From a virus (lineage: Duplodnaviria > Caudoviricetes), in the IMG/VR virus record IMGVR_UViG_2547132519_000001, positions 1 through 64,000 of that record: a DNA stretch of 64,000 nt. One strand, given 5' to 3'. How positions within the stretch are numbered: position 1 is the stretch's first letter; every line of letters begins with the position of its first letter. The notes beneath the pieces were generated by a model. The model was not told the DNA's origin. It did no database searches and was given only the letters and a program-made list of their open reading frames with translations. The position numbers were made by a program, and so were the translations under genes. Shown here in pieces: positions 11,330 through 30,091 of this stretch.

Positions 11330-11345
11330 TTGTTCACCATCCTTT

Positions 11346-11369
11346 TAAGGGACTCTTATTAGAGTCCCC
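11346..11369 (-). terminator. Hairpin downstream of tape-measure stop
   Basis: GGGACTCT-AATA-AGAGTCCC perfect stem; weak U-tract. Confidence 0.45.
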
Positions 11370-11371
11370 AA

Positions 11372-14300: not shown

Positions 14301-16531
14301 TGGGATAGAAGGTTATCTAAATTGGCTTTTTGTGTGTTAGCGTCAAAAATATCGCCAGCTTTGGCTTTATTATAAGCTACAAGAGCACTAGTCGCTGAAC
14401 CAATCGTATTAATTAGTGCTATTGCATTCTCAATGTCACCACTCGTATCTAAGATTGTACCGTTTGCATTAGCTTTTTCCAACGCAAGACCAGCAAGTGC
14501 TACTTTTGCAATATCACTTTGAGTTGCTTCATCAATTAGCCCTGGTATTTCGCTTGCTGTAGCATTAGCAAGTGTGTCACTCATTTCTGCTGTATACGCC
14601 TTTTGTGCTGCTAACTGTTCTTGTGTGAAAGCAAGTCTAGATGCCACAACCTCTTCGGCGTTAGCAACACCCATATTTTTTAGCATTGAGGAAATTAAAT
14701 TAGTGTTTTCTTCTGTATAATCGTTTAGTGCGAGTTTACTATCAATCCATGCAGTAGTCAAATCATCAAAAGCTGATTGTGCACCCTTTATGTCCTTGGG
14801 AGAGTCAGATATCGTTTCGATAAAATTGGTATATGATTCACCTAGTTCACCAAAGCTGTCCTTGAAATTTTTATCATCTAATAAGGCGAAGTCAAATGGA
14901 TTCTTGCCCTTCATACTACTCATTATTTTATCCAAGGACTCAAAACCTTCTGAAAGAGAATTTACATTTGATATTACTTCTTCTTTAGATATAGCTAAAG
15001 ATTTTTGACCTGAGTCGCCAACATCACCTTGTACAATATTTAATTTTATTAATTGATCTATGACTTGATCAACTGATAAACCATACTTATCTGCGGCAGC
15101 TTTTAATTTATTAAATACATCATTATTTTCAGCATCATCCATAGCTAGTATATCTTCTTTAGATTTTCCTCGTAAAGATCCTACTATGGTCATGAGATTA
15201 TCTTTATTAGAATTAAGGTCGTCTGCAAAATCATATATACCTGTGTCAGCCTGATTAAATACTTCATTCATAACACTGGCATATTTCTTCCAGTCGGAAC
15301 TGGTTAAATCTATAGTATCTTTAACTTTATTAAGATCATCTCTTGCAGATAAAATCTTCTTTTCATCTCCAGAAGCAATGGCATCATTATATTTTTTAAC
15401 AGCGCTTGTAGCATCACTATACCCTACCGATAATTTGTCGCTCGTAGCTATTTGTGCCACCAATGCTTTATTATAAGTGTCTCCATAATCAGCAATTAAG
15501 TCTTTGGTTTGATTGAGAGACGAACTTGATATGCCAAGAACAGATTTTATGATAGGATCTTTTTCACCATATTTTTCTTTTAAGCTGTCAACGTAGGTCA
15601 TAAAATCATTGATTGCCTTATTAGCTTCAGTGGGGTCAGCACTAAGTCTCAAAGAAAAGGTGCCAGTAGGTGCATATACATCGGGATTTTCTAAATTTAA
15701 TTCATCCTTGTGTGATCTGGCATAGTCAAAGATTGCTTTTCCTGAACCGGAGAACATACCAATATCCTGAGCCACCATGTAGGTTTTCTTTTTAGTCATT
15801 TTCTTTTGAGCTTTATCAATTGTATCTACATTCTCATTTAAATACTTTTGGGCAGCAATTTTATTTAGTTGCCTGATTGCCTCTGTTTGATCTTTATATG
15901 CATCTGTCACAAGATTAAGCCGACCATATTCGTCTCCATATTTCTCATTGAGTTCTTGCTGAAGGGAGAGGAGATCACTCTTTATTTTATGTTGTTCTTC
16001 TTCTGACGTATTGGCATTTGTTAATTCATCATGTAATTTTGAATATCTATTTGCATAATCATCTATAGAACTTGAAACTTCGCCATATGCTTGCGCTGCT
16101 TCGGCAGTTGCTTGTCGAGCTTCTTCAACAGATTGTTTATACTTACTCCATATACCAATACCAGCAGTTACGGCCATTCCAATTAGAAGTAACGGGTTTG
16201 CCATCATTGTAGCCCAGAGACCTTTTAATGCAGATGTAAAACCAGCGGTAGAGAAGCTTGCGCCCTTTTGAGCAGTAGACAATGATGATGTATTAATTGC
16301 AGCTTCAAGTTCTGCCTTACTTAAACCAGAAACTGTAGTTTTTACACCATTTGCATTTTTCTCGAATATTGTCCCAGATAGTATCAATTCTAACTGTGAT
16401 TGTTTTAACTTTCCGCTAGACAATACGCATTTCTGCATACTTAAATCCAATGAATTAAAATAACTCGCTATATTACTACCACTATTTAATTTGCCTAACA
16501 CATTTGAAAGATTTCCGAGGTCTTTAAGTTG
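11372..16531 (-). CDS. Tape measure protein, 3' exon (1,719 codons)
   Basis: Long helical/coiled-coil ORF with ALKGLWATMMANPLLLIG; no Shine-Dalgarno before the TTG at 16534; in frame with the 5' exon after splicing. Confidence 0.88.
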   Translation of the reverse strand, partial: QLKDLGNLSNVLGKLNSGSNIASYFNSLDLSMQKCVLSSGKLKQSQLELILSGTIFEKNANGVKTTVSGLSKAELEAAINTSSLSTAQKGASFSTAGFTSALKGLWATMMANPLLLIGMAVTAGIGIWSKYKQSVEEARQATAEAAQAYGEVSSSIDDYANRYSKLHDELTNANTSEEEQHKIKSDLLSLQQELNEKYGDEYGRLNLVTDAYKDQTEAIRQLNKIAAQKYLNENVDTIDKAQKKMTKKKTYMVAQDIGMFSGSGKAIFDYARSHKDELNLENPDVYAPTGTFSLRLSADPTEANKAINDFMTYVDSLKEKYGEKDPIIKSVLGISSSSLNQTKDLIADYGDTYNKALVAQIATSDKLSVGYSDATSAVKKYNDAIASGDEKKILSARDDLNKVKDTIDLTSSDWKKYASVMNEVFNQADTGIYDFADDLNSNKDNLMTIVGSLRGKSKEDILAMDDAENNDVFNKLKAAADKYGLSVDQVIDQLIKLNIVQGDVGDSGQKSLAISKEEVISNVNSLSEGFESLDKIMSSMKGKNPFDFALLDDKNFKDSFGELGESYTNFIETISDSPKDIKGAQSAFDDLTTAWIDSKLALNDYTEENTNLISSMLKNMGVANAEEVVASRLAFTQEQLAAQKAYTAEMSDTLANATASEIPGLIDEATQSDIAKVALAGLALEKANANGTILDTSGDIENAIALINTIGSATSALVAYNKAKAGDIFDANTQKANLDNLLSQRTGLGMSMAIDNQLNAYQEKMDKLKADADKQVQDAINTSRNYQGKGASANYAGANKSNKAGSGSDKKKKEDSQNEVDWIARKTKLMQDEYSKLEELANKDTVAYLGLTQEQFDKAKSIFDNGLGNTFEGLSELQSYADKAGLSLGELYTMIQSGAPGASKENALQGMLKMQTETLLPQYQQEVEAYSKAYADALKAIPSEYKDKIENGGIEIESLPSDLGKKVQTAIDANEKLKASQKQLADGETEHIKTIKDLHENRISAINTENEKLEQSNKIIKSQMELMEARGEIIDADFYKQQKNNNKGLISGNEQDIAEWESEMADLRAAKVSVKSKDYKELQAKVKAAKNEIQGLRIEQEEINQALEQMPIDNLNTIVSMYKDISSAIEKWGDVASATGGKLSADYYQTLISNGATTIDQYQDLASEIKNVMDEQEKGSTRWNELYGQLQSVNSEMSSMVQNLKKWNEELLKMPLDNINNYSSELQKVTDGLSGVKEEYDTVISAVTGAIKEQIDAINEQKDAVNEEYNAQKKALQDKLDLMNKQNKELQLQLKYEQALYNLQKANQQATEKVIRDGQVVYEQNADKLRDAQEAVQSAKFDMETDKIQTQIDELQETLDGLNDKYQDQIDSLQKISDKWSEISEKITQAQNEAKANDLLGVGWKDKVLSGKDVELFNNFSGMYANTAEQLRQYQEQINNTNNIYSLLEDYISSYKEGTLSYDQALTGINNLLAQMNQTMSAEGNLQNIYDYLGAMNGTAANAENVLSGIKQGLANTATELIDSFKQYNQNAGIISEYTSSWQQLTDNVASMLDVLEEVRDNLENASEDDDDDEDGAPFRKDSSGYVNSGPGVGGKAYKNGIENGLVGTSSTSDREAKMKLLGLKKMDQDEISAILHRNEAVFNPEQQDTLLKNLATAWKITPSKTDYSTFSPNRPNITTQEFKFGNINIQECNDTEGLANGILSGGLKRAIIQQSGIR

Positions 16532-16557
16532 CAATTAAATTAATTAGTAAGTATAAT
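16529..16557 (+). promoter_or_regulatory. Sigma70/SigA promoter for zinc-ribbon gene, overlapping the 3' splice site
   Basis: TTGCAA (16529-16534), 17-bp spacer, TATAAT (16552-16557). Confidence 0.7.
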
Positions 16558-16577
16558 ATATTCAATATAAAAAATTC

Positions 16578-16994
16578 TTGGAGGAGAAAAATATGGCGCT
16601 AATTGAATGTCCTGAATGTGGAAAGCAGGTTAGTGATACTGCAAACGCTTGTCCTAATTGTGGGTATGATATAAAGAGTTTTGTTGAGTATTGCCCACAT
16701 TGTGAATTACTTGATAAAGAAAAGATACTAATGAGTTTTTCAAGAGATCAAAACGTATACACTTGCCCAAAGTGTAACAGAACAATGGGTGTTGCTTCTC
16801 CAGAAGCAGAAGCTAATTGGGCAGCACAGAGACAAATGGAACAAAATCTTCCCAAATGTCCATATTGTAGTTCTACCAATTTGAAGAAAATTTCTGGTCT
16901 ATCTAAAGCTGGTAGTGTAGCTTTGTGGGGTGTTTTTGCCATGGGTAAAGTAAGCAAGCAATGGCATTGTAATAGTTGTAAATCAGATTTTTAA
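16578..16994 (+). CDS. Zinc-ribbon protein with hydrophobic segment (true start probably ATG 16593)
   Basis: Six CxxC pairs; GGAGGAG RBS before MALIECPECG. Confidence 0.85.
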   Translation: MEEKNMALIECPECGKQVSDTANACPNCGYDIKSFVEYCPHCELLDKEKILMSFSRDQNVYTCPKCNRTMGVASPEAEANWAAQRQMEQNLPKCPYCSSTNLKKISGLSKAGSVALWGVFAMGKVSKQWHCNSCKSDF

Positions 16995-17091
16995 TTTATA
17001 TGATAATTCAATCTATCTGAAGTAAATTAACTTTGCTTAATTCATCTATTTCATTTTGTAGTTTATTTATATTTTTATCTAAAGTTAAGTT

Positions 17092-17134
17092 ATAAAACAA
17101 AAAAGGCCTTATTTAAGACCTTTTTTTGTTTTAT
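17092..17134 (-). terminator. Intrinsic terminator inside the intron (bidirectional, stronger on minus strand)
   Basis: Minus RNA AGGUCUUA-AA-UAAGGCCU-UUUUU within a longer inverted repeat, between convergent genes. Confidence 0.75.
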
Positions 17135-17140
17135 AATATT

Positions 17141-18034
17141 TTATTCGATTTCACTATTTAAATTATCAAATGTCTCCGATCTAACCATTTCTGAGCTTCC
17201 ATCAGCGGACGACATACAATGATATGCTTGATTGTTAGTCATTAATATGAAGCTTATGATGGTTTTCTTATCATAGTATGTACTATTTCCTTCCACAGCA
17301 AAACTCAACATTTTTCTTTCGCCAGGACTGATAGTTATGGAGTCTAAATTTATTACCGATGTTGATCCTGCTTCTACAAGTTTTAAATCGCGATTTAAAT
17401 TACTATAATCATGATTATATAATTTGGCGAATTCACTGTATATAATTACATCATTGTCACTATTATTTTTATATTCCATTACTATGTATTTGGCATTGGG
17501 GTTAGTTTTGGTGTTCATGTATACCTTATACTTAGGTATATTATTTGTCTTGTTAACCCTTGCTCCGTCATCACCATAATAAGCGCTGTCCTTAGCATAG
17601 CAATTACGTAGCATATATCCATCTGTACCTACCCAGTACCATTTTCCATTGACTTTAAGATCTGTATTTTTCGGGTATGAGCCATCTGCATACTGATACC
17701 ACCAACCATTTTCATCTTGTCTCCAGCCGTCAGAATTATAAATAGAAGAGTACATATCATTATTTAAACTGTGTCCCATGATTGCTCCGTCGGAATCAGT
17801 TTGATACCCGTTAAATAACTGTGTATTAGGCAATAAGTATCCATCTTGGTTAGTGTAATATAATTTCCCTTCCTTTATGAAAAAACTACAAGTTGGGTAC
17901 GTTCCATCGTTATATCTATACCATGTTCCAACATTATCTGTTGCCCAAGCCCCCATATATACTGTTGCATAAGAAACTATTGTACAATTAAAAATAAATA
18001 ACATAAAAATAAAGCTAGTTAGTATCTTTTTCAT
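17141..18034 (-). CDS. Secreted protein with cell-wall (choline-binding-type) repeats
   Basis: Signal peptide; GWRQDENGWWYQYADGSY and KWYWVGTDGYM repeats. Confidence 0.85.
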   Translation of the reverse strand: MKKILTSFIFMLFIFNCTIVSYATVYMGAWATDNVGTWYRYNDGTYPTCSFFIKEGKLYYTNQDGYLLPNTQLFNGYQTDSDGAIMGHSLNNDMYSSIYNSDGWRQDENGWWYQYADGSYPKNTDLKVNGKWYWVGTDGYMLRNCYAKDSAYYGDDGARVNKTNNIPKYKVYMNTKTNPNAKYIVMEYKNNSDNDVIIYSEFAKLYNHDYSNLNRDLKLVEAGSTSVINLDSITISPGERKMLSFAVEGNSTYYDKKTIISFILMTNNQAYHCMSSADGSSEMVRSETFDNLNSEIE

Positions 18035-18088
18035 GTAATTTACTCCTTTATCTCTTTCATTTAATAGGATCTACTCTCTGGCGTTCAA

Positions 18089-18775
18089 TTATTCCTCTAT
18101 GTGAAAACGATACAATTTCTTAGCCGGGATTATCCGATAGTATGAATTAACGAAAGAATCGCAGCTAACTGTGAAGTTTAAGGTTGTATTTTCATTGACG
18201 GAAAATTGCTGATATTTACCTACCATAAATATGAAGTCAGTACCTTGGCTGTTTGCTGGAACTATACCATAATCGCAAGGTGTAAAGGTATTCGTATCAT
18301 ACATGAGCAATTTTTTTATCATTCCGTCAGTGTTTACTTCAACAACTGGATCTATAACAATATCCTCTTTCCCTTCATTTATAAATCTACACAGTATTAA
18401 ATCACTAGTTTTTTCTTTTGATCCAGTGGCCCACACAACACTAAAATTTAGACCAGGTGTATTATCTTCAAGTACTCGTCCATCTGCGTCAACTCTGTAT
18501 CCCTCTGGAGTTGTCCAATTATAGGTTAAGCTACCATCAGTGTATAAGTAATGCTTTATGCCATTAACCTCAATAAGTCCGGTTTGCATATATCCATTAG
18601 AATCGAAGTGATATTTTTCTTCGCCAATGGTTAACCAATCGTTCTTAACATAACTACCATCATCATTCTGATACCACCAACCCACACCATCCTGTTTCCA
18701 TTCTCCAGCAAATGATACAATCGTACTGCTTATAGCAATAGTCGCTGACATTAGTAACACAAGTAACTTTCTCAT
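18089..18775 (-). CDS. Secreted protein with cell-wall (choline-binding-type) repeats
   Basis: Signal peptide ending SFA; GEWKQDGVGWWYQNDDGSY, YHFDSNGYMQTG. Confidence 0.85.
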   Translation of the reverse strand: MRKLLVLLMSATIAISSTIVSFAGEWKQDGVGWWYQNDDGSYVKNDWLTIGEEKYHFDSNGYMQTGLIEVNGIKHYLYTDGSLTYNWTTPEGYRVDADGRVLEDNTPGLNFSVVWATGSKEKTSDLILCRFINEGKEDIVIDPVVEVNTDGMIKKLLMYDTNTFTPCDYGIVPANSQGTDFIFMVGKYQQFSVNENTTLNFTVSCDSFVNSYYRIIPAKKLYRFHIEE

Positions 18776-18804
18776 ACAAATCCCTCCTGTAAGCTGTTTT
18801 ATGT

Positions 18805-18813
18805 ATTATAACA
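18805..18813 (-). promoter_or_regulatory. Extended -10 promoter for the cell-wall-binding genes
   Basis: TG-T-TATAAT about 30 nt upstream of the ATG at 18775. Confidence 0.55.
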
Positions 18814-18864
18814 TGGAGAGAGTATTAATTCTATAAAAAGAGAAATTTAAGTATTGGATTTAAA

Positions 18865-19332
18865 CTATGATAACTCTAAACGCTCATATAATTCACATAA
18901 AGCTACTTGGACATTCGTGACTCGATCACTTACTTCGCTAATAGTGATAGGTTTTAAACCATCATTAGAAGGAAACTTTGAAATTAATTCATCAATTTCC
19001 ATCTTTTTAGTATCATCTAACTCATAGTGATATTTGGTTTCATAAGTAATTTTATCTACTGGCTCTATATCGATATAATCAACCATTTCTGTGTTGAATT
19101 CACCAGTTTCAATTTCTGACTCATCTAAAATGGGAATTTTAATTTCTCTTTGTTTTTTGACCTCTTCATTGACTGTTATTTTGTTCTCAATTACTTCTGA
19201 TACAATCTTATATGCAGTGTAATAAATCTGTTCACCTTCTGGTAAATTTTCCATTGGGATCGAATTATCAAGATCACCAACTAAACAATAATTACCTGTT
19301 AAATAATTATTGCTATCTATCTGAACTTTCAT
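18865..19332 (-). CDS. Hypothetical protein following tail fibres (possible assembly chaperone)
   Basis: 155-aa acidic ORF with GGAGG RBS; C-terminal VQVALCELYE. Confidence 0.7.
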   Translation of the reverse strand: MKVQIDSNNYLTGNYCLVGDLDNSIPMENLPEGEQIYYTAYKIVSEVIENKITVNEEVKKQREIKIPILDESEIETGEFNTEMVDYIDIEPVDKITYETKYHYELDDTKKMEIDELISKFPSNDGLKPITISEVSDRVTNVQVALCELYERLELS

Positions 19333-19344
19333 GTTAAAATCCTC

Positions 19345-20928
19345 CTATGATTGATACGTTTTATATTTGATACCTACGACTTTTGTTATATGAGATTGGG
19401 TTTGACTGATAGAGAGACTGGTATGTGTTGAGGTAACAGGAAGAATGTTAGTATAAGCAGGAGAAGTCTGATACCCAAAAAGACATGATATATAAGTATT
19501 AGTTGGCTTTAAATCTATAAGTGGTATTATCTCATCTTTAGAAATTTCCTTATAATCATAATGTTTTGCCGATACATTATTTATACTATAAAAATAAACT
19601 CCCAACTTATCATAATTGTTTATAGAATCTAATAAATTAATTGTATTAGAAACTGCCGTAGTACCATCTGTTCCTATATTGCCTTCAAATAATACTGTTT
19701 CTTCTATTAAGCCTTGAATAGACATGAAATATGTAGGTTCATACTTTATACAAAATAAAACAGCAGTATTCGTGGGTCTGGAGGTGTATACTGTTGGTTG
19801 ATTTATAAACCCGCTAGTGGTTATCCATCTGTTTGATCCGCCTATTTGGGAAATATATATACCTTTAGAGCTGTTAATTGTATTATCAATATTACTAGGT
19901 GCAGCTCCTCCTGTAGTTAAATTTGATCCAATCCAAAAATCATTAAGATTGGCATTTGTTGAAGTATAAAGATAAGGATATATTGTACCACTTTGATGTA
20001 CACCGATCTCCTCAGATAATTTTTCTACTTTATCTCCATGGTAGCCCCGTATAAACTCATTTCTCAAATCTGGCAAAGCAAAGGTCGCGGTTCCATCTCC
20101 GCCAAAGAAGTTAAAAGTGCCAAACTGATCCTTTATATATTGAGATAGGTGTGGATAGTCTGTAATATTGTGAACAGAACCATCGCAAACGAGATAGTGG
20201 CTCGGTGCTGTCTTACCCATTACAGATATAATATTACCAACTGGGGTATCCTCAATGCCTTGGGTAGTGTTAATATAATTTACTGGGTCGATAGTAACGC
20301 TTTCTATGTTTATTCCTTTAATAGAAGTTATGGATACCTTGTCTACCTGTGAGATACTAAAAGGATTATTGACCCCGTCTATATGTATTACAGTAGGAGA
20401 CTTAAACCACGCTCTTATACTCATATGTGCTCCACCCCAAGAGTTAGTAACACTTGTTGTAACGTTATCCATTAAAAAAAGAACTGACCCATCTGACGGA
20501 GAATATGTATTTGTATTATTGTAAACTATTTCAGTAACATTGAGCATATTTAATTCTGACTTAAATTTATAAGTGGAATCTACAGCAAATTGAACACTAA
20601 TTATATTATAGTTTTCTATGCTTTCTTTTAATGGAATATCTATATTAATTGATGTAAAGACAGGAGAACCGTTATTTGCTGGAATTGTAACAGGAAAAGT
20701 AAATGTAGAACTCAATAATTCCTTGATTCCTCTCGTATTTACAGTTTTCTGTGCTATACTTATATCATCCATAGTTTTTACTGCATCTTGTAATCCAGTA
20801 ATAGCTGATATTGGATGTGAATCCTCAGCATCTCTTCCAGGAATAGAATTATGAGTACCTGCTATAGTTTTAACAAATTTTTTAACACTATCAACTGTAA
20901 CACCTAAATTTGTTTTATTGATTCCTAT
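19345..20928 (-). CDS. Tail-collar fibre paralog 3 (frame extends 52 codons upstream of 20772 to an ATA)
   Basis: Tail collar motif PVGNII...YLVCDG...FALPDLRNEFIRG; extension IGINKTNLG...HPISAITGLQ matches paralog 2; RBS GAGGTGAG. Confidence 0.8.
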   Translation of the reverse strand: MGINKTNLGVTVDSVKKFVKTIAGTHNSIPGRDAEDSHPISAITGLQDAVKTMDDISIAQKTVNTRGIKELLSSTFTFPVTIPANNGSPVFTSINIDIPLKESIENYNIISVQFAVDSTYKFKSELNMLNVTEIVYNNTNTYSPSDGSVLFLMDNVTTSVTNSWGGAHMSIRAWFKSPTVIHIDGVNNPFSISQVDKVSITSIKGINIESVTIDPVNYINTTQGIEDTPVGNIISVMGKTAPSHYLVCDGSVHNITDYPHLSQYIKDQFGTFNFFGGDGTATFALPDLRNEFIRGYHGDKVEKLSEEIGVHQSGTIYPYLYTSTNANLNDFWIGSNLTTGGAAPSNIDNTINSSKGIYISQIGGSNRWITTSGFINQPTVYTSRPTNTAVLFCIKYEPTYFMSIQGLIEETVLFEGNIGTDGTTAVSNTINLLDSINNYDKLGVYFYSINNVSAKHYDYKEISKDEIIPLIDLKPTNTYISCLFGYQTSPAYTNILPVTSTHTSLSISQTQSHITKVVGIKYKTYQS

Positions 20929-22189
20929 TTAACTCACCTCCTTAGTTTTGAAAAGTTTTATATTTAATACCTGTTATTTTAGTTACATATGATTGATACA
21001 TTAAGAAATTTAAGTTTGAATAACTAGAAGTTTTTTCTATATCCGCAAAACTGATATGCGGACTTTGCCCCCAGTTAAGAGTTAGATGGGTATCAGGTTG
21101 CAATGATTCTATTAAATCTTTAAATCTTTTTGATGGAAAAGAATTATAATCAAGTCTTACTGCCGTACCTATAGAAGCTTGATAATAAAAACCTATTTCA
21201 TCATATTCCAAAACAGAAGTGGTTAAACTTATAGACCGCGATACTTGAGTTGTACCGTTTGTTCCCACAAGTCCCTCCCATAGAATAGTATCTTCTATAA
21301 GACCTTGTATAGACATAAAATATGTAGGTTCGTATTTAATACAATACAATACCGCTATGTTGGTTGGCCTGGCTGTGTATTTACCAATTCCGGTTGAAGA
21401 CCAATTCTGAGCTGAGGAGTTTACAAGCCACCCTGTATTATTTGTTCCTTGTATTATCGAATCCATATTGCTTGGAAATTGATCTGCGGAATTATAATTT
21501 GAGGTAAAAGCGACTTTAGAGTTACCTGTATATAAAAAAATATTTTCAGTAGGATTTTGATGAATGCCAATCTCACCAGATAATTTCTCAGTTTTACTTG
21601 CATGATATCCACGTAAAAACTCATTTCTTAAATCAGGTACTGCAAAGGTAGAAGTACCGTCACCACCAAAGTAATTAAAGCTTCCAAATTCAATTTTAAT
21701 ATGTTGAGCTAAAAATGGATAATCTGTTATATTATAAATAGCCCCATCACATGTGAGATAGTGAGATGGAGGGGTCGTACCCATATATGAAAGTATATGT
21801 CCTACAGGTGCATCTTCTATGCCCTTATCGGAATTTACGTATTCAACTGGATCTACTATTGTTTTTTCCATTTCTAATATATTCAGATATGATGTATTTT
21901 GAAGTTTTGCTCCTGTTTGAGTTCCTCCTATAACTGTTACTTTTATACCAACTTTAATATCTGTTTTTGGTGTAATAACGCAAAAAGATGGTAATATTGC
22001 TTGATTTATAGTAAGCGCAACATAATCTACCGTCGTGCTAATTGACTTTTTTTGCTGTAAAATAAGGACAGTTGGAGTAATTCACTCTAAGTTCTGTTCT
22101 TGAACAACAAAGGTTGTAGCATTTCACTGCTATTTTACTTCAAACTTTTGTATCATTTTACTCCATATTTTCTTGGAGGATTTTAAAAT

Positions 22190-22555
22190 ATGACAAAAGC
22201 TCAAAAAGATGAATACTGGATGGATTGCATCCAGCAGTGCCGCGTAAGCGGCTTATCTGATTACGCCTGGTGCAGTCAGAATGGTATACCTACCAGCTCT
22301 TTTTATTACAATATAAAGCGGCTGAGGAAGAAAGCCTCTATGATTCCTGACTCTGTTCCAAAAGTTCTAGAGAAAACAGAAGTTGTACCAATTCACTACA
22401 ACGAACTGCAAGAAACAAAAGCAGTTCTTCCTAAAAAACAAACGGATCGGATTGCAATCCATCTGGAATACAATGGCTTTGTTTTGGCTATCAGTAACAA
22501 TGCAGATGCCGCCATTATTACAGCAACATTAAATGCGTTGCGACAACTGTGCTAG
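22190..22555 (+). CDS. tnpA: IS66 accessory protein TnpA
   Basis: SGLS..AWC..NGI..SSFYY HTH; first IS66 ORF. Confidence 0.88.
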   Translation: MTKAQKDEYWMDCIQQCRVSGLSDYAWCSQNGIPTSSFYYNIKRLRKKASMIPDSVPKVLEKTEVVPIHYNELQETKAVLPKKQTDRIAIHLEYNGFVLAISNNADAAIITATLNALRQLC

Positions 22556-22902
22556 GTGATCTCTCCGGCGTGGCAAAGATATTTCTTGTGGCCGGCTACA
22601 CCGATATGAGGCGTAGCATAGACGGTCTTATGGCAATTGTCCGGGATACCTATGAGTTAGATCCTTTCAGTAATTCCCTTTTTCTTTTCTGCGGAAAAAG
22701 ATGCGACAGACTGAAGGCACTGCATTTTGACAAAGATGGTTTTGTGTTACTTTATAAACGGTTAGATTCCGGCCGTTTCCAGTGGCCACGTAATTCAGAA
22801 GATGTTAGAAATTTGACCAGACAGGAATTCCGTTGGCTTATGGAAGGTCTTTCTATTGAGCAGCCAAAGGCAATTAAACCCGTTGCCAAAAAGCCCTTTT
22901 AA
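22549..22902 (+). CDS. tnpB: IS66 accessory protein TnpB
   Basis: TDMRRSIDGL, LFLFCG, DGFVLLYKRL..GRFQWP. Confidence 0.93.
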   Translation: MLGDLSGVAKIFLVAGYTDMRRSIDGLMAIVRDTYELDPFSNSLFLFCGKRCDRLKALHFDKDGFVLLYKRLDSGRFQWPRNSEDVRNLTRQEFRWLMEGLSIEQPKAIKPVAKKPF

Positions 22903-22990
22903 GCATCTGATAAAGTACACGCAGAACCGCTTATTTACTGGCTTTGCGGTCTCCTTTGTGGTATAATAAGTATATCATTCAAGGAGGTAC

Positions 22991-24592
22991 ATGGTCATGA
23001 AAAAGTCTGTTGAAACCGAAGATCTTAACATGAATCTGCTGGTCAGTAATCTGCTCAAACAGCTGGAAGCAAAAGATCATCAGATGGAACAATTAAACCA
23101 GACCATTGCAAACCTCACGGAAACAATTAATGAACTGAAACGAAAAATCTTTGGTATTTCCAGTGAGAAATCATCGAACTTACCTTACATTGACGGACAA
23201 CTCAGCTTGTTCGATCAGTTGGGAATTGATGAACACGTTCACGAACCGGAAATGATCAATGTGACAGCGCATGAGAAGAAAAAATCCCGTGCTACGCATG
23301 ATGAACTTACAAAAAATGTACCGATAAGGACCATTGAGCTTTTACTGGAAGGTGATTCTCGTAACTGCCCTTACTGTAATACTAAAATGGAAGATATCGG
23401 CTCCAAAGTTGTTCGTGAAGAGATTCATATCACTCCAGCAAAAGTGGAACGTGTCCAATACGTACAGCATAGCTATGCATGTCCACAGTGCCGTGAAGAT
23501 GGTGATTCAACCATTGAGAAGGCACCTGTGCCAAAGCCACTCATCAATCACAGTATGGCTTCTGCTACAGCGGTCTCTTACATCATGTATCAGAAGTGTA
23601 CGAACTATCTTCCGTTTTATCGTCAGGAGCAGGATTGGGCACAGCTGGGAGTCAAGCTGAATCGTGGAACCATTGCCAGCTGGTTCAATACATGCGCAGA
23701 AGAATATCTGGAACCCGTTTATGAGAGATATCATGAGTATCTTCTTAGGCAGTCCGTCATTCATGTAGACGAGACGACATGCCAGGTTTTGAATGAAGAT
23801 GGCAAGACTCCAGAATCAAAGTCTTACATATGGTTGTACACCAGCGGTGCATTTGAAGAGCACCGGATTGTGCTTTACGAGTATCAACCATCAAGGGGCG
23901 GCTATCATGCAGCAAAGTTCCTTGCTGATTATCACGGGTTTGTCCATACGGACGGCTTCAGCGGATACAACCGTTTGAGTGACATTACCCGATGCGGGTG
24001 CTGGGCACATCTTCGAAGATATATGTTCGAAGCGATTCCCAAGAAGAAGGGATCATGCTCCGAAAAATCTGAAGCCTACACAGGCTATTCCTACTGCAAC
24101 CAACTCTTTCAGATAGAGAAAGAACTGAAAGACTTAGAACCAGAAGAGCGACAGAAAAAGCGTCTTGAACTGGAGCGACCTGTACTGGATGCATTCTGGA
24201 AGTGGGTGAATGGGATAAATGCCCTTGGCGGATCAAAGCTTGCCAAGGCAATTAACTATGCCCAAAACCAAAAATCGTATATGGAGAATTACCTCCTTGA
24301 TGGAAGATGCTCCATTAGTAATAACGCAGCTGAAAGAGCCGTGAAATCATATGTTATGGGAAGAAAAAACTTCCTCTTTCATGACACTGTAAAAGGTGCC
24401 AAAGCAAGTGCAATTGTTTACACGCTTGCAGAAACAGCCAAAGCAAATGGATTAAACATCCGTCTTTATCTGGAAACAGTTATGACTAAGATGCTGGACT
24501 ACAAAAATGAGCCCGATAGTATCCTGGAAGAACTGATGCCTTGGTCAGAAGCAATGCAAAAATCCTGTGGCTTGAATAAAGGTACTATTTGA
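22991..24592 (+). CDS. tnpC: IS66 DDE transposase TnpC
   Basis: Coiled coil, zinc finger, HVDET, HTDGFSGY, CWAHLRR, SNNAAER. Confidence 0.95.
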   Translation: MVMKKSVETEDLNMNLLVSNLLKQLEAKDHQMEQLNQTIANLTETINELKRKIFGISSEKSSNLPYIDGQLSLFDQLGIDEHVHEPEMINVTAHEKKKSRATHDELTKNVPIRTIELLLEGDSRNCPYCNTKMEDIGSKVVREEIHITPAKVERVQYVQHSYACPQCREDGDSTIEKAPVPKPLINHSMASATAVSYIMYQKCTNYLPFYRQEQDWAQLGVKLNRGTIASWFNTCAEEYLEPVYERYHEYLLRQSVIHVDETTCQVLNEDGKTPESKSYIWLYTSGAFEEHRIVLYEYQPSRGGYHAAKFLADYHGFVHTDGFSGYNRLSDITRCGCWAHLRRYMFEAIPKKKGSCSEKSEAYTGYSYCNQLFQIEKELKDLEPEERQKKRLELERPVLDAFWKWVNGINALGGSKLAKAINYAQNQKSYMENYLLDGRCSISNNAAERAVKSYVMGRKNFLFHDTVKGAKASAIVYTLAETAKANGLNIRLYLETVMTKMLDYKNEPDSILEELMPWSEAMQKSCGLNKGTI

Positions 24593-25110
24593 TTTTTCGA
24601 GAGGTGAAAAATCCAGAAAGATCAATACACTTCTTTATGTAGCGCTTACGATTTATACCATTAGCACATTCACAAACTCCTGCTTTACCAATTACTTTAG
24701 AATTTGTATAATCATATAAACAATAATACATATAGCCTTGGTAAGATATTAGTCTTACCAGGGCTTCTATATTGTAAGTGACATTGGCCTTTAATGTATA
24801 TAATTTAGTAGTTTGATCATAATCAATACCATTATTTACTATTGGAATAAATGGTATTAATAAATTCACTACAGGAGTATAATCTAATGCATCTGTAACA
24901 CTTGATAAACATTGAGAAAGCTTTTGATTTACAGTTCTCTGTGCAACATTAATATCATTAACCTTATTTATTTCGTTTTGCAATCCGGTAATAGCTGATA
25001 TAGGATGAGCATCGATATCATCTCTCCCGGTAATCGCGTTATGAACGCTGGGAATTTTACCTGTAATAAAGCTTTTAATGCTTTCAATCGAAATACCTAA
25101 ATTTGTTTTA

Positions 25111-27504
25111 CTAATTCCCATTTAATATACCCTCCACAAATTCTTTGATTTCTGAATCGGTATATGTGGTATCGTCTCCTCCACCTGTTGAAGAAGTTGA
25201 TCGGTATCTAATTCCAATAACTTTATCTAACCGAGATTGATATTGATTTAAATCTAATCTATGGCTGGTAGAAGTTTTTTGTATATCTGTATAATCAATT
25301 ACATTAGAGTATCCCCAAACTAGCGAAATAGAATGATTTATATTTGTACTATTTTGGCATTCAATGATTTGACTAGGGTATATCTCCTTATATTGTGGAC
25401 GTAAAGAACCATCTGATCTTGTACAAGTGAAGAGAAAACCTAATTTATCATAATTTGTAAAAGAGTCTTTTAAGCTAATTGAATTCGATACAGCTGTTGC
25501 CTTGGTGGTTCCGACGTTACCTTCCCATAACACAACCTCATCCACTAAACCATTAATATTCATAAAGTATGTAGGTTCATATTTAATACAATAAAGTACA
25601 GCAGTGTTCGTAGGACGAGATGTATATAGTTTATTACCTCCACCAGCCCAGTTAGACACAGATCCATTATTAGACCATCCTCTAACCACAGTGGATTTAA
25701 TTAAATTGTCTGGATTTTGAGTAGACAAATATTTTCCATATTCTCCATCCATATATATTCTAGAATTCCCATCAACTAAAAAATTTATATGTTGAGTTCC
25801 GCTTTGATGAATTCCAATTTCTCCAGATAACGGTTCGGTTTTATCTCCATGATAACCACGAAGAAATTCATCTCTTAAATCTGGTACAGCAAATGTGTTA
25901 GTACCATCTCCTCCAAAAAAATTGAATGTTCCAAATTGGTCTTTAATATGTTGAGAAAGATATGGGTAATCTGTGATATTATAAGATTGACCATCACAAG
26001 TGAGGTAATGCTTAGGTGAAGTTTTGCCCATCTGTGGTAGAATACTGCCAACTGGAGTGTCCTCTATGCCTTGTGTGGTATTCACATAATTTACAGGATC
26101 AATGGTGACGTTTTCAATATTAACTCCTTGCACAGATGATAGCACAACATTAGCCCAATCTGTTGCTGTAGATGGAGTGCTTGCATTAAATAAAAATAAA
26201 TGAGTTGCATCTTTAAACCAGAAACTAAAAGACGCACTAAAGCTGCCCCATGCTCCTGCTGTTGTAGTTCCTTGTATTTTATTAACATTCATGGCAGAAC
26301 CATTAGTAAAATTTAAAACCTCAGAATTATTAAAAACTATACTAGATGTTTTAAATGTATAAATAGGATAAGAAATTTTAACAGTATTGGTGTTTACTTT
26401 TAGTTGAATGTTAATCATATCATAATTAAGAATACTATCTTTAAGCGTAATTGTCTGATTTATTGCTGTAAGATTGGCCGTCCCCATGGTTAAAGCTGGA
26501 GTTAGATTAAACGAATATTCTTGACTCAATAGTTCTTTAGTGCCTTTCGTATTTACCGTTTTTTGCGCTATGCTAATACCATTAGTAAGTTCCTCAACTA
26601 CAGCTATATCATATGATATTTTAGTACTGCTCCATGTTTTTGATAATGAAGTTACGCTATCATCTATAACTTCAGAAGTGCCTCCAACGGCACTCAACAC
26701 ACCATTACTATCTACAAATGTGGTTGAATTATCAGGCTTAACACCACCAAGTACATTAGGAGAAGCACTTGGAAGGGTGTAGTTATTTAATCCGGCAAGT
26801 TTCGACTTTTCGTCAGTAGAAAAATTATTTTGAGATAATCCATATCCTGAAACTTTATCTACTTTATTATTTAAAAATGAGTCTGTTTCTACTTTTGAGT
26901 AATAATTGGTTAAATCAATATCTGTGGTACCTATATTTGCCCATTCGTTGTTTATGTAAAGCCACTGGTTGTACGAATTTTTATCGATTTCCTTTTGTAA
27001 GTACATAGTTGTTGCTGAGATATTTTCTGATGGAAGAATCTCTATTACCTCAATAGTCATTGAATTTAAATTTGCAATTAATGAATTAATCTCGGTCTTT
27101 GTATAAGATTCCATCTTACTATAATAGTTCATTAAGTTTGAAGCAGATATTGTAATAAAATCTGAATCGTTAGTTAATTGAGAAATTAGTGTAGGTATTT
27201 TTGGTTTGTCCTTTAAATCATTATAGCTTCCTGTGGAAGCAGCATCAGAAAATCCTAACTGTTTGGATGTTATATTCCCTACCAATTCCACTCCATTGAT
27301 TACCGGCCTGTTATAAAGAGATTCGTAATCACTTGCGCTTCCAGAAACAGTTTTATAAGTTCCATCGTCAAATAACGCTTTGTTTCCTTCGCCATCAGAA
27401 GTAAGCTTTTGAATATTTTCTTTTTGATCTGAGGTGATAATTTCCTCAGCAACTTTGTCTGTATAACTCTTACCCGCGGCTAGAGTTGTTAAATCAATTC
27501 CCAT
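25111..27504 (-). CDS. Tail-collar fibre paralog 1 (797 aa)
   Basis: ASTGSYNDLKDKPKIPT and LPSASPNVLGGVK fibre motifs; collar PVGSIL...LTCDG...FAVPDLRDEFLRG. Confidence 0.85.
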   Translation of the reverse strand: MGIDLTTLAAGKSYTDKVAEEIITSDQKENIQKLTSDGEGNKALFDDGTYKTVSGSASDYESLYNRPVINGVELVGNITSKQLGFSDAASTGSYNDLKDKPKIPTLISQLTNDSDFITISASNLMNYYSKMESYTKTEINSLIANLNSMTIEVIEILPSENISATTMYLQKEIDKNSYNQWLYINNEWANIGTTDIDLTNYYSKVETDSFLNNKVDKVSGYGLSQNNFSTDEKSKLAGLNNYTLPSASPNVLGGVKPDNSTTFVDSNGVLSAVGGTSEVIDDSVTSLSKTWSSTKISYDIAVVEELTNGISIAQKTVNTKGTKELLSQEYSFNLTPALTMGTANLTAINQTITLKDSILNYDMINIQLKVNTNTVKISYPIYTFKTSSIVFNNSEVLNFTNGSAMNVNKIQGTTTAGAWGSFSASFSFWFKDATHLFLFNASTPSTATDWANVVLSSVQGVNIENVTIDPVNYVNTTQGIEDTPVGSILPQMGKTSPKHYLTCDGQSYNITDYPYLSQHIKDQFGTFNFFGGDGTNTFAVPDLRDEFLRGYHGDKTEPLSGEIGIHQSGTQHINFLVDGNSRIYMDGEYGKYLSTQNPDNLIKSTVVRGWSNNGSVSNWAGGGNKLYTSRPTNTAVLYCIKYEPTYFMNINGLVDEVVLWEGNVGTTKATAVSNSISLKDSFTNYDKLGFLFTCTRSDGSLRPQYKEIYPSQIIECQNSTNINHSISLVWGYSNVIDYTDIQKTSTSHRLDLNQYQSRLDKVIGIRYRSTSSTGGGDDTTYTDSEIKEFVEGILNGN

Positions 27505-27559
27505 TTATTATGTTTCACCTATATCTTTCTGGTTTATGATATTTTAAAGGTAAGTTAGT

Positions 27560-28005
27560 CTTCATATCTTATACACGTTGGAACATGCATTAACAGCATA
27601 TGAAATATGGCTTTCATGTACTGCGAGGAATGGTGCTCTCTGAACATTCCCTATCATTAATGACTTTACCCCAACATTGCTTACGCAATTGCTACTATTG
27701 GATTATCTGTCATGACTGTACGTAGATAGGGTTAGCTGCTTCGTTAGTGATTGTAAATCTGTCGGGAATTATGTTTTATCCCTAGAAAACTCACTCCGGT
27801 GTGTTAACCGTTTGACTTATTTGCCTTATTTTTCGGCTTCTCCAAATAGGAGAGTAGTGAGTATTACACTTTCAAGCAATTAATCCTCTTTTTATTTTAA
27901 AACTTTCATCTCTAGGAATTGTTGTGTCGCCATTATGACATTTCCTTCCCCTAGATAGGCCGACTTAAATCCTCGGAAATTTAAGTAACTCGTTTTACAG
28001 AGTTA
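27560..28005 (-). ncRNA. Group I ribozyme core (P1-P9 5' strand)
   Basis: P element AAUUGCUUGAAAG (27881-27869), Q CGAAGCAGC (27743-27735), R GUUCAGAGAGCA (27645-27634), S AAUGCAUGUUCC (27591-27580); P3, P4, P6a, P7, P8 all pair. Confidence 0.9.
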
Positions 28006-30042
28006 ACCGTAGTTTTTTACAAATGATGTGATACCTGCACCAGTTAAAAGCGTTGACAGCACTCCAAAATTCTTTATAACTCCATCTAAGCCACTGGATA
28101 GTGCAGTGCTAGAATCAACAAGGATTTTTAAGAAATCAGAGTTTAAGACAGTTAAAGAAAGTGATTGGAATGAGGCTTCAAATTGCTTGGTCTTTGCATC
28201 TAATGATTCCATCCATCTTTCTTGTTCTTGCTGAGCACTCCCAGCAGAGTTTAATGATTCCTGGAGAGCCTTTCCAACTTGTCCAGATTGAAACGACTGT
28301 AAAAGCGCCATAACTTGGTTACCGCGCTGTTTTCCTGCTATAATTTCCAGCAAGTCTGCTTGTTTAGTTTGACTAATATGATCCCATACTTCTGAAATTC
28401 CTTTAATAATTTCATATGTAGACTTAAAATTACCTTTGTCATCGAAAATATTAACTGCTCCATCAGTACGATTTAAGATTTGAGTCTGTATTTTTGATAT
28501 AGACTCAACGTTTTCGTATTCTTCCCCTAACTCCTCTAGGTTACCTTTCATCCCACGAACACGCATACTTAATACTTTTAAAGTATTTCCCATTTCAGAA
28601 GCGTCTTGTATAATCTCTGAGCCACCAGTTAGCATGGCTAATGTCTGATTAATATCATTTCCAGCCGATTGAAGAGCAGAAGCGGAGTTTTTTAAACCGG
28701 TACCTAAACCTGCGGAATCAACTGCAAATTTGTTTCCTAAAGCATTAAGCGAGTCAACAATATTAATACTATTTGAAGCTTCAATATTAAAAGCTTTCAT
28801 TGCGGTTACTAAATCGGAGACAGCCGTTTTGTCATCAACTTCTCCAACATTCGCATATATAGATGATATTTTAGCTAGTTCAGACGATTCATCTATGTCA
28901 TATCCTAATTTTGCCCAATCAGCCGTCTGCTCTACTAATCCAGATATAGTTCTGCCTAAGTCTTTGGCGTTTTTCTTTGCACCATTTAAGAATTGGGCGT
29001 ATTTGTAATCTGTCTCGTCCGTAACTTTATAAAGATTAGTCATCGCTGTATCTACTTCGTAAACTGACTGATACATCTTATGGAAAGAGTTTGCTCCAGC
29101 CATAATGACGGATGTTATAGACAACCATGAGGTGAACTTAGATCCTGCATCTTTAATTGAGTCCGTAAATGATTTCCCTAACAGCCCGGCCTCTCTTGCG
29201 GAGATTTGAATTCTCATAAATTCAGCTTCGATCTTTTTCAATTCTGGTACCGTCAAATCGTCTGCTGATTTTAGTTTTTCTACCAACTGATTTATATCAG
29301 AGCCGTACTTCTTACTAGCTTTAGAATTGTTTTCCATCCACGTAACTATGTTGCCAGCTTTTGTTAGACGTTGTGTTTCGGAAGCAAAACCTTTAAAATT
29401 AGCTGTTAGGTCTTTGAGTCGATTATTTACTTTTGAATACTCTACATCTAGACTTTTTGCATTAGCAATTAAAGAACTACTGTCGGGGTTTGCTTTTAGT
29501 TTCTCGAATGCAAGATTAACATTTAGTAATTCTTTTTGTATTTGATCTGCCGATAAACCGAGCTGCCGAAAAGATGCAGTCATTGTTGATATTTTTGACT
29601 CGTTCTTTCCAACATCTATTGCCTGGGAAATTTTCGATGCTGAAGCAGCTGCCTTATCTGCTTCTATAGATTCGCGTCTATACATATCAGCCATTTGCTG
29701 TAGCTCTGATGATTTTGACCCAATTGACTGATATGTACTTTTTCTTAAGTCTGCAAAAGATTGTTCAACAATCTTATTTTTTTTAACAACTTTCTTTGCT
29801 TGATCTTCATAAGCTTTAAATATGTCGTTTCCATTTAACTTTGTACCAAATGTTTTATTAAAATCACTTGCTATCTCTTGAGATACTGCTTTCAATTGAT
29901 TGCGGAGAGAAGCGGTTTTTAATTCAGGAATAATATCAATTGAATATTTATTGATAATATTTTGGACTTCCTTCAATTCTGTATTTATACCTGATTTGTC
30001 TAATACTGTCTGTAATAGAACTTTAAAATCAGTATTTGCCAT
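28006..30042 (-). CDS. Tape measure protein, 5' exon (TP901-type core, 679 codons)
   Basis: VDTAMTNLYKVT, MGNTLKVLSMRVRG, FKSTYEII, IAGKQRGN; GAAAGGAG RBS before MANTDF at 30042; ends ...NYG then in-frame TAA as first intron bases. Confidence 0.9.
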
Positions 30043-30091
30043 TACGTTTCTCCTTTCAATGCATAAAAAAAGAACGGAGTTACCGTTCAAA

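Follow-up and report, generated by a model that had tools for sequence, protein, structure and literature searches.

A probable 11.5-kb group I-type intron with multi-gene cargo in the tape measure gene of a Clostridia prophage

The minus strand from 28005 to 16532 of the window, the 64,000-nucleotide stretch of phage DNA analyzed here, is probably a single group I-type intron residing in a Clostridia prophage tape measure gene. The gene is split exactly, the insert carries an RNA structure that co-varies together with its guides, and the insertion site is fixed with a variable cargo. The preliminary description had read the insert as a cargo-carrying group I intron, and this reading is supported by homologous cores at the identical codon in 39 other phage or Clostridia contigs, by compensatory changes in 41 of 79 modeled base-pairs, and by covariation of P1 and P10 with the exons.

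Results

The insert splits a tape measure gene in frame

Homologue alignment indicated that two minus-strand reading frames together make up a single tape measure gene of TP901 type, separated by an insert of 11,474 bp that occupies 28005 to 16532 of the same strand.

28006..30090, minus strand: tape measure exon 1 (ORF list; Pfam PhageMin_Tail, E 4.4e-22; collinear with long homologues)
11372..16531, minus strand: tape measure exon 2, 1,719 codons plus stop (ORF list, homologue alignment, guide pairing)

Exon 1 comprises 695 codons from its listed TTG start, or 679 from an ATG at codon 17, and its C-terminus (...NYG) is followed by a stop codon at 28003-28005, while the frame of exon 2 opens at 16531 and reads QLKD.... 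Four uninterrupted tape measure proteins (P0002, P0003, P0008 and P0064) were matched by BLASTP up to residue 694 of exon 1 and from residue 2 of exon 2, and in the coordinates of these proteins the two alignments are separated by precisely the two joint residues, with none missing or added. Five other long homologues (P0005, P0006, P0023, P0024 and P0025) matched exon 2 by BLASTP only from residue 44-67 and were collinear in MAFFT. The coordinates and in-frame junction proposed earlier are thus borne out by the reading frames and by the alignment with uninterrupted homologues that had been suggested as a check, in which those four ran through the joint collinearly and without a gap. The proposed length of ~2,398 amino acids stands for translation from the ATG at codon 17 (679+1719), with the listed TTG start giving 2,414 amino acids instead. 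Because contigs from the source run cross both intron ends with zero differences, the split is not a misassembly.

The 5' end of the insert folds as a group I core

An RNA of ~430 nucleotides with group I architecture occupies the 5' end of the insert, and its helices are listed below with window position equal to 28006 minus the intron nucleotide.

27580..28005, minus strand: ribozyme core, intron nucleotides 1-426 (helix model, covariation and homologues)
28004-27987, minus strand: P1 hairpin (helix model)
27986-27961, minus strand: P10 guide (helix model)
27960-27958, minus strand: P1 guide G-C-C (helix model)
27955-27911, minus strand: P2 (helix model)
27888-27884 with 27629-27625, minus strand: P3 (helix model)
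27878-27875 with 27740-27737, minus strand: P4 (4 firm pairs, UGCU/AGCA)
27869-27747, minus strand: P5 domain (helix model)
27736-27644, minus strand: P6 domain (helix model)
27640-27634 with 27585-27580, minus strand: P7 (bulged A; invariant G-C)
27624-27593, minus strand: P8 (helix model)
27505..27579, minus strand: post-P7 stretch, the site of P9 hairpins in relatives (fold z-scores)

The covariation model was built by hand and tested on 22 distinct sequences with the window copy as reference row, and its 79 pairs in 14 helices, P3/P7 pseudoknot included, follow the canonical core order P3-P4-P5-P6-P7-P8. These pairs were 96.2% paired in the 22 homologues, compared with 85.7% in column shuffles (0/500 as high), a control that overstates significance because the sequences are related, and with 37-44% when partners were slid, a control free of this weakness. 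The 41 pairs with compensatory changes carry double changes, and the covariation score was 0.375 versus 0.18. RNAalifold recovered P2, P3, P4, P5, the P6 arm and P8 unaided, and P7 was added by hand. The P7 G-C pair beside the bulged base (alignment columns 439/497), the predicted guanosine-binding site, was found in 22/22 sequences, and the first P7 pair co-varies (GC in 13 and AU in 9), with one bulged base between it and the invariant G-C. All family-invariant core pairs are retained in the window copy. Of the helices drawn in the preliminary description, P3, P4, P7 and P8 are upheld by covariation, and P6a less cleanly, since the P6+P6a helix was 79.8% paired in a MAFFT alignment that is gapped there.

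No stable hairpin was predicted in the post-P7 stretch of the window (z = 0.40), the corresponding values being −0.95 for L003, −3.7 for L008 and −3.1 for L010 among relatives. An Infernal search against Rfam, another check suggested earlier, did not bear the assignment out: RF00028 reached 10.9 bits in the window (E = 8.2), below the gathering score of 50. No match attained that score in the window, in 7 loci with the core or in 7 other interrupted loci, and the 542-nucleotide copy, the last of these 15 related loci, gave none even in a permissive scan.

Predicted splice sites are marked by P1 and an unusually long P10 guide

According to the available excerpts of PMC3984707, group I introns are defined by a 5' splice site following a U in a U.G wobble with an internal guide. 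The U at 28006 that ends exon 1 pairs U.G with G 27960, and the U.G was found in 22/22 sequences. P1 contains only 3 exon pairs, the middle one being matched between exon and guide as AU in 16, GC in 3, CG in 2 and GU in 1 of 22. The other end of the intron is as follows.

16532, minus strand: intron terminal G, with the 3' splice site between 16532 and 16531

A terminal G was present in 10/10 relatives whose 3' ends were mapped without requiring G; nine further 3' ends came from a scan that looked only after G and do not represent a test of the terminal G. Both the U.G exon end and the terminal G had been predicted beforehand, and both predictions held in these comparisons.

The first 21 nucleotides of exon 2 pair with a guide at 27980-27961. 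Such guides are 21-26 nucleotides in length, far longer than the short P10 described in the excerpts of PMC3984707. The window guide/exon-2 duplex had an energy of −21.5 kcal/mol versus −5.9 +/- 2.1 in 2000 shuffles, none of which reached it, and a chance origin of the pairing is excluded. The guide co-varies with exon 2: in a comparison of three clades, duplex energies were strong for partners from one clade and weak for partners from different clades. When the guide was compared with the whole 64-kb strand, the top 11 of 63,974 positions all overlapped the 3' splice site. Compared with its closest relative L003, the window guide has one mismatch and one bulge more (−21.5 versus −27.3 kcal/mol). 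The copy of 542 nucleotides and copies of 0.8-1.1 kb have the long guide as well. Finally, neither inverted nor direct repeats are present at the insert ends, apart from four bases that the ends share and that P1/P10 pairing explains.

Cargo genes occupy the intron downstream of the core

[quoted passage not shown] Among its genes are three tail-collar fibre paralogues, of which one is split by IS66, together with two genes for choline-binding-repeat proteins and, in antisense orientation, one for a zinc-ribbon protein.

25111..27504, minus strand: 797-aa tail-collar fibre protein (Pfam Collar, E 1.2e-13; PHROGs tail fibre families)
24650..25121, minus strand: split fibre paralogue, N-terminal piece, 157 codons, open up to the IS66 border
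22003..24650, plus strand: IS66-family element, three plus-strand ORFs (Pfam TnpB_IS66, E 3e-39; DDE_Tnp_IS66, E 5e-90)
20942..22002, minus strand: split fibre paralogue, C-terminal piece (Pfam Collar, E 1.3e-14)
19345..20772, minus strand: 475-aa fibre paralogue, 48% identical to residues 310-772 of the 797-aa fibre (Pfam, PHROGs)
18865..19332, minus strand: 155-aa protein, weak DUF2977 match (Pfam, E 6.4e-4, below the curated cut-off)
18089-18775, minus strand: 228-aa choline-binding/cell-wall-binding-repeat protein (Pfam Choline_bind_1, E 1.7e-6)
17141-18034, minus strand: 297-aa choline-binding/cell-wall-binding-repeat protein (weak Pfam match only)
17099..17126, minus (sense) strand: terminator-like hairpin and U-run, ~560 nucleotides before the 3' splice site
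16578..16994, plus strand: antisense 138-aa multi-zinc-ribbon gene (Pfam, PHROGs, copy comparison)

The 797-aa fibre gene starts 502 nucleotides into the intron on the tape measure strand. The C-terminal piece of the split paralogue is 51% identical to residues 461-769 of this fibre and remains open for 43 codons upstream of its listed ATG to the IS66 border, the reading-frame relation of the two pieces across IS66 being computed from coordinates. The body of the IS66 element spans about 22011-24642 with an 8-bp target duplication, and its depth was ~4x in the source run. A metagenome contig from a second sample contains the cargo without IS66 and links positions 22002 and 24650 through 8 letters common to both. 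IS66 is thus a later, secondary insertion within a cargo gene.

The 228-aa and 297-aa proteins have hydrophobic N-termini, and PADLOC gave no match for the choline-binding-repeat proteins (17141..18775). Terminator-like sites in the region show no excess overall (7 found versus 5.9 expected in shuffles). The zinc-ribbon protein, without a nuclease match, is the sole ORF common to the 8/8 intron copies compared, all of which keep its C-terminal module of ~45 amino acids, and a promoter-like site (10/12 match) is located near its gene at 16529-16557. No LAGLIDADG, GIY-YIG, HNH, PD-(D/E)xK or EDxHD endonuclease was detected by Pfam and PHROGs in the window cargo ORFs searched, in agreement with the earlier remark that no endonuclease ORF is apparent. 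As a separate observation, the zinc-ribbon part of this protein in L010 gave one weak PHROG HNH match (E 0.0013).

A family of introns shares one codon

The core directly follows the shared codon in 12/34 related tape measure loci. All 29 pattern matches in viral contigs hold a full core, 28 of them (all but L064) being seen at that codon, and all 10 matches in Clostridia genomes are at the identical codon. Mapped introns of relatives range from 542 nucleotides (without an ORF) to 5,735 nucleotides, and the window copy is therefore the largest found here and the largest of 19 mapped copies. Cargo in relatives varies and includes NYN, YbjQ, a GmrSD/NsnA-like nuclease and an S24 repressor-like protein, the gene load across the family ranging from 0 to about 10 unrelated genes. 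This variety is the one observation that points to the 'safe landing site' role proposed in the preliminary description, and it would be consistent with such a role. No DNA similarity of the intron family to the phage collection was found, no recombinase or transposase is common to the family, and family copies share no conserved terminal intron element near the 3' end that is able to dock in trans.

Discussion

In the model we favor, late transcription would run through the entire insert, with the 5' splice site being chosen by a 3-bp P1 with its U.G pair. The distant 3' splice site would be drawn to the core by the unusually long P10 between the 21-nucleotide guide and the first 21 nucleotides of exon 2. 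Two transesterifications would then link ...NYG to QLKD... for a tape measure protein of ~2,400 amino acids, and sense-strand cargo could be translated from the precursor or the excised intron. We infer that the core is catalytic, that the internal terminator-like site is read through, and that the 11.5-kb copy continues to splice.

An alternative that we consider rather unlikely is that the intron lineage is real and this 11.5-kb copy no longer splices, leaving a split non-functional gene in a decaying prophage as a consequence of cargo growth, IS66 insertion, the internal terminator and loss of P9. Against splicing stand the terminator-like hairpin 560 nucleotides before the 3' splice site and an IS66 in the transcript path that has already broken one cargo gene. 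The P9 region without a stable fold, a guide weaker than that of L003, and the size of this copy, the biggest of the 19 mapped, point the same way. The prophage could be defective because the provirus record is rated 82% complete, and no sequence joining 28006 to 16531 was found in four runs, of which the two RNA runs consist of sparse contigs barely covering the locus. However, the exons have stayed open over 695 and 1,719 codons, every family-invariant core pair is kept, and the guide picks the true site uniquely in 64 kb. In addition, closely related DNA, including the IS-free cargo stretch, occurs in an independent metagenome, and a strong P9 is missing as well from L003, which belongs to the same clade.

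Natural trans-spliced group I introns are known in organelles, as described in excerpts of PMC2731911 and PMC3873408. By analogy, a transcript of exon 1 and the ribozyme could end at the internal terminator, with a promoter in the intron's 3' part driving exon 2 and the guide keeping both RNAs together. The sense-strand terminator-like site at 17126-17099 and a 21-nucleotide, −21.5 kcal/mol duplex that far exceeds the need of cis-splicing would fit such a pathway. We nevertheless find it improbable, because the long guide is shared by the 542-nucleotide and 0.8-1.1-kb copies, for which a trans mechanism is unnecessary, no convincing sense promoter was found between terminator and splice site (candidates of 9/12 were as common in shuffles), and the 3' end lacks a conserved terminal element for docking in trans. 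That the insert is instead a DNA element (a transposon, an integrative island or a guide-RNA-directed insertion sequence) whose structured RNA serves DNA mobility can be given hardly any credence: it contains IS66, and its guide, complementary to flanking target DNA, is reminiscent of RNA-guided insertion elements, whose guides are complementary to target DNA, but the family has no common recombinase or transposase, IS66 is missing from a relative and sits within a cargo gene with an 8-bp duplication of its own, one 542-nucleotide copy is devoid of any ORF, the ends lack repeats other than the four bases explained by P1/P10, and the group I splice-site features (U.G pair, terminal G, P7 G-C with its bulge) are all kept.

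Given a splicing intron, we tentatively suggest that the family may act as a portable cargo bay for swappable accessory modules, including defence nucleases in relatives and alternative receptor-binding fibre cassettes in the window. The very long 3'-exon guide might free the 3' splice site from proximity to the ribozyme and so admit unlimited DNA into an essential late gene free of cost, and the fibre cassettes might be co-expressed with tail genes from unspliced precursor. If this proposal is correct, the window copy, of special interest for its cargo of tail fibres rather than defence genes, would be the first phage intron with virion structural genes and would be able to alter host range. 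A family of 0.5-11.5 kb at a fixed codon with lineage-specific cargo would mean that a ribozyme can make an essential structural gene a neutral storage site for accessory genes, and would account for many of the tape measure genes that appear 'split' when gut phages are annotated. The long co-varying P10 guide would represent a natural way to select a splice site kilobases off, with a bearing on engineered trans-splicing and circular-RNA ribozymes.

Comparison with known systems, for which we refer to excerpts of the cited papers, locates what is new. According to these, group I introns of bacteria and phages contain no cargo beyond a homing endonuclease gene, the exception being IStrons with transposase genes (PMC3984707, PMC2504315), and we did not find multi-gene intron cargo of 11.5-kb scale in the published literature. 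Because tape measure group I introns have been published (PMC2504315, PMC10448857), the novelty lies in size, cargo and the long guide and not in location. Tape measure genes in prophages of the Bacillus cereus group contain the group I introns TMP-IVS1/2/3 (Tourasse and Kolsto 2008, PMC2504315). Like the window intron, these introns are in frame with a stop codon at or near the start, some copies are without a complete homing endonuclease gene, and P1/P10 are fitted to the target site. By contrast, they are described as carrying at most one homing endonuclease gene compared with the 0 to ~10 unrelated genes of the window family, which also differs in reaching 11.5 kb and in its 21-26-nucleotide 3'-exon guide. 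In Vibrio phage ICP1, RNA-seq and RT-PCR demonstrated the splicing of tape measure introns (Barth et al. 2023, PMC10448857), whereas we infer it here. The ICP1 gene is likewise in pieces, with intron content varying among isolates and exons constant, but its reported cargo amounts to one or two genes for HNH homing endonucleases and that of the window is multi-gene and non-endonuclease.

IStrons (CdISt1 and relatives; PMC4227781, PMC3984707) resemble the window intron in having a 5' ribozyme, foreign genes before a distant 3' splice site and Clostridia hosts. According to those excerpts, an IS200/IS605-type element gives them mobility and defines the 3' end, unlike the window family, which has no common transposase, is fixed at one codon and carries IS66 as a later passenger. 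We rejected an IStron identity on these grounds: the sole IS in the window is the IS66 inside a cargo gene, missing from the related contig, and no TnpA- or TnpB-like ORF was seen in the introns of relatives listed or searched. The ND5-717 group I intron of corallimorpharian mitochondria (18.1 and 19.3 kb; PMC6545197) similarly exceeds 10 kb and contains many genes, while the window intron differs from it in belonging to a phage and in carrying its cargo after the core.

A split tape measure gene

On the minus strand, the exon-1 ORF (28003-30090) has 695 codons ending in ...NYG followed by TAA and matches Pfam PhageMin_Tail (E 4.4e-22), and from 16531 onward 1,719 codons stay open, beginning QLKD. 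A search for longer relatives of the first part scored 8,000 candidates, 380 of them passing E <= 0.001. Among the 120 of these that were listed, BLASTP alignments of four homologous proteins (P0002, P0003, P0008 and P0064) reach first-part residue 694 and resume from residue 2 of the second part, with subject coordinates leaving exactly two joint residues between both alignments. The joint region was then aligned by MAFFT with nine long homologues and proved collinear and gap-free at the joint, bearing out the in-frame junction of two tape-measure ORFs put forward in the preliminary description. Given this collinearity and the two joint residues exactly left, the two ORFs are, by sequence comparison, the halves of one tape measure gene, with 11,474 bp (28005..16532) lying between two codons. 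Contigs of the source run, the probable origin of the assembly, span 11000-22036 and 24621-30500 without difference; since they cross both junctions, these are not assembly artefacts.

Distribution of the core

A core at the same codon was found in 12 of 34 viral contigs encoding exon-1 relatives, with 68-89% identity to 27505-28005 (nhmmer E 1e-99 to 6e-12). For a family scan, a degenerate pattern made from the most conserved arm was run on viral contigs and on genomes. The viral contigs yielded 29 stretches, all 29 with a whole core, which was preceded by the ...KN[FY]x codon in 28, the codon being not resolved for locus L064. The genomes yielded 10 stretches, all from Clostridia (Enterocloster, Lacrimispora, [Clostridium] asparagiforme, Ruminococcus, a Lachnospiraceae bacterium and MAGs) and all 10 at the same site. 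Cultured carriers among them include Enterocloster lavalensis, [Clostridium] asparagiforme and Lacrimispora strains. The core is present once in its own genome, and the deposited phages gave no DNA match to the 19.5-kb locus (megablast) or to the 511-nt core (blastn).

Conserved pairing in the RNA core

Twenty-two distinct cores were aligned, and RNAalifold recovered P2, P3, P4, P5, an extended P5 domain, a P6 arm with a GNRA-capped hairpin, and P8, to which P1 and P7, the latter making a pseudoknot with P3, were added by hand. In the resulting hand-written model of 79 pairs, 96.2% of cells are paired, compared with 85.7% in column shuffles (0/500 as high) and 37-44% when partners were slid by 1-3 columns; 41 of the 79 pairs have changes on both sides, and the covariation score is 0.375 against a control of 0.18. 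Two pairs never change (22/22 each), namely U.G at the 5' splice site and the G-C of P7 that adjoins the bulged base, and the first P7 pair is G-C in 13 cores and A-U in 9. Pairing, covariation and invariant-pair counts thus confirm P3, P4, P7 and P8 as first drawn from the single sequence; the P6a drawn with them is supported, with poor alignment in that region. The P10 hairpin (72/127 cells paired), P5b (61/84) and P5c (66/86) were left out of the final count, MAFFT being unreliable there. The strands around P7 resemble what we take to be the conserved R and S elements.

These core features fit the group I intron definition in a review (PMC3984707). Rfam at gathering score reported tRNA and no group I intron over the whole window, and under permissive settings the stretch 27300-28300 scored 10.9 bits for RF00028 (E = 8.2), below the gathering score, so that the Infernal test suggested in the preliminary description failed. 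Seven core-bearing loci and the 542-nt copy L065 likewise had no group I match by Rfam. Because of this sub-threshold score and the lack of matches in related loci, Rfam was not used as support. The one tRNA gene lies inside the provirus at 50774-50846 on the minus strand (65.7 bits).

On the minus strand, RNAalifold also paired the last ~9 exon-1 bases before the P1 triplet (28010-28017) with an invariant stretch, rich in A and U, that separates P2 from P3 (~27890-27905); neither side varies, and the pairing is a possible extra exon-binding helix in the predicted fold.

Guides for both splice sites

Exon pairs in P1 number only three, and the middle one is AU in 16 cores, GC in 3, CG in 2 and GU in 1, the exon being matched to the guide. 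Just 5' of P1, a second guide (P10) is matched to exon 2 over its initial 21 nt through 10 bp, a bulge, 7 bp, a mismatch and then C-G. This duplex has an energy of -21.5 kcal/mol, against -5.9 +/- 2.1 in 2,000 exon shuffles, none of which was as low. When the guide was compared with all 63,974 minus-strand positions, the 11 best windows all overlapped 16528-16538, and the next independent site reached -18.4; shuffles and scan together confirm the guide noted earlier.

Ten introns, their 3' ends placed by eye or with the help of a protein alignment, were used for comparison. Their guides and exons form three clades, with strong pairing within clades (-12 to -29) and weak pairing between most clade pairs. 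Guide-based prediction was tried in 21 further loci and gave an in-frame protein continuation in 11; a plausible in-frame 3' site was absent in seven (L039, L044, L057, L048, L061, L038 and L041), mostly with short downstream DNA, and the head pattern failed in three (L049, L068 and L069). When the terminal 70 nt of 19 introns were read for P9/P9.0, no conserved 3'-terminal element emerged.

Size series and cargo

Lengths of the 19 mapped introns are 542 (L065, no ORF), 826-1,124, 1,558, 1,712, 3,498, 3,857, 4,416, 4,686, 5,453, 5,702, 5,735 and 11,474 nt, the window copy being the largest, and each has its core 5'-most, ahead of the extra DNA. The short copies have an antisense zinc-ribbon ORF as sole content, and its C-terminal module of ~45 aa is kept in all eight copies compared, the window's included. 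Pfam, PHROGs and a protein atlas match this ORF solely to zinc-ribbon families of unknown function, and we do not label it an endonuclease. Among larger relatives, the L003 intron, of the same clade as the window copy, carries NYN and YbjQ proteins, and the L002 intron a GmrSD_N/NsnA-like nuclease, an S24/HTH repressor-like protein and a weak PemK-like protein.

Cargo of the window copy
Start 502 nt into the intron: 797-aa tail-collar fibre
Fibre paralogue, 475 aa: 48% identity to residues 310-772 of the 797-aa fibre
Third fibre paralogue, in two pieces: C-terminal piece 51% identical to residues 461-769 of the 797-aa fibre
22003-24650: IS66 element (Pfam) with 8-bp target duplication, splitting the third fibre paralogue
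After the fibre genes: 155-aa protein, weak DUF2977 match
After the 155-aa protein: two proteins with choline-binding repeats
17126-17099, sense strand: terminator-like hairpin
16578-16994, antisense: zinc-ribbon gene, 138 aa, last in the cargo

Two of the fibre paralogues described earlier are thus intact and the third is split by IS66; its pieces share a frame once the IS is discounted, the downstream piece being open to the IS border. The phage's own tail proteins, encoded downstream of exon 2, are unlike any of these fibres. In the source run IS66 is ~4x as deep as the flanking DNA, hence present in several copies in the host genome, and a contig of another metagenome joins 22002 straight to 24650. 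On the strength of this depth and the IS-free contig, IS66 arrived late, as a passenger, in an intron that then measured about 8.8 kb. The terminator predicted earlier is seen as a terminator-like hairpin, the antisense promoter stands as a consensus match and nothing beyond it, and the cargo ORFs searched contain no homing endonuclease domain, as had been stated. A metagenome contig from run X2 skips 1,601 bases at 20082-21684 and has 37 other letters instead, which suggests recombination between fibre paralogues in a related phage.

Proposed removal at the RNA level and its alternatives

We propose that a group I-type intron makes up the insert and would be removed at the RNA level, with the long P10 guide bringing in the distant 3' splice site and the sense-strand cargo expressed together with the late genes. 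The element is very probably a member of a splicing group I-type intron lineage, and the full statement, that the window copy still splices, is likely. Counted against splicing by this copy are the RF00028 failure, the terminator-like site and IS66 in the transcript path, a clade without stable P9, and a slightly weakened guide. When four sequencing runs were compared with the window at 90% likeness, none contained the 28006-16531 joint and none showed an intron-less DNA form; RNA support for the joint is thus also missing, although the two RNA runs, made up of contigs that reach 15 and 24 of 30 bins and lie for the most part over IS66, weigh neither for nor against splicing. Of the alternatives, a dead intron copy in a decaying prophage is unlikely, two transcripts joined by trans-splicing are very unlikely, and a DNA element instead of an intron is the least probable. 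IS66 had very high depth in one metatranscriptome run. Silage, bird and mouse metagenomes had small shares in the run search, from which no habitat is drawn.

Group I introns are described in prophage tape measure genes of the Bacillus cereus group (PMC2504315), and splicing of tape measure introns is demonstrated in phage ICP1 (PMC10448857). IStrons share the core-first layout of the window family but carry IS200/IS605 genes (PMC3984707, PMC4227781). Multi-gene group I introns of 18-19 kb in coral mitochondria have their cargo in P8 and are removed by back-splicing (PMC6545197). The literature searched yielded no account of this Clostridia intron family, nor of any phage group I intron whose cargo comprises several genes.

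Other interruptions of related tape measure genes

Among 22 related tape measure loci without the ribozyme, the frame stops within 46 codons of the same place in 17 and is followed by non-coding, structured-looking DNA; only L012, L025, L029, L030 and L035 (5/22) read on for more than 800 codons.

Frame-stop loci without the ribozyme
~11000-11250 per locus: L005, L006, L007, L011, L016-L022, L026, L028, L031-L034

The site may be occupied by other intron families in such loci; Rfam on seven of these interrupted loci gave a group I match in none. A second interruption of ~1.3 kb, farther upstream in exon 1, is present at L014:10640-11926 and also in L015, with similar breaks in L029 and L032-L034. 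The L014 copy contains an ORF of 345 aa that matches the treble-clef zinc finger family DUF4379 (E 1.2e-10) and, weakly, DUF2726; the copy looks like an ordinary endonuclease-carrying intron at another site of the same gene. In related phage contigs, Rfam also identified a skipping-rope RNA (L023:7000-7066, 39.2 bits) and a Fusobacteriales-1 RNA (L017:20612-20729, 94 bits).
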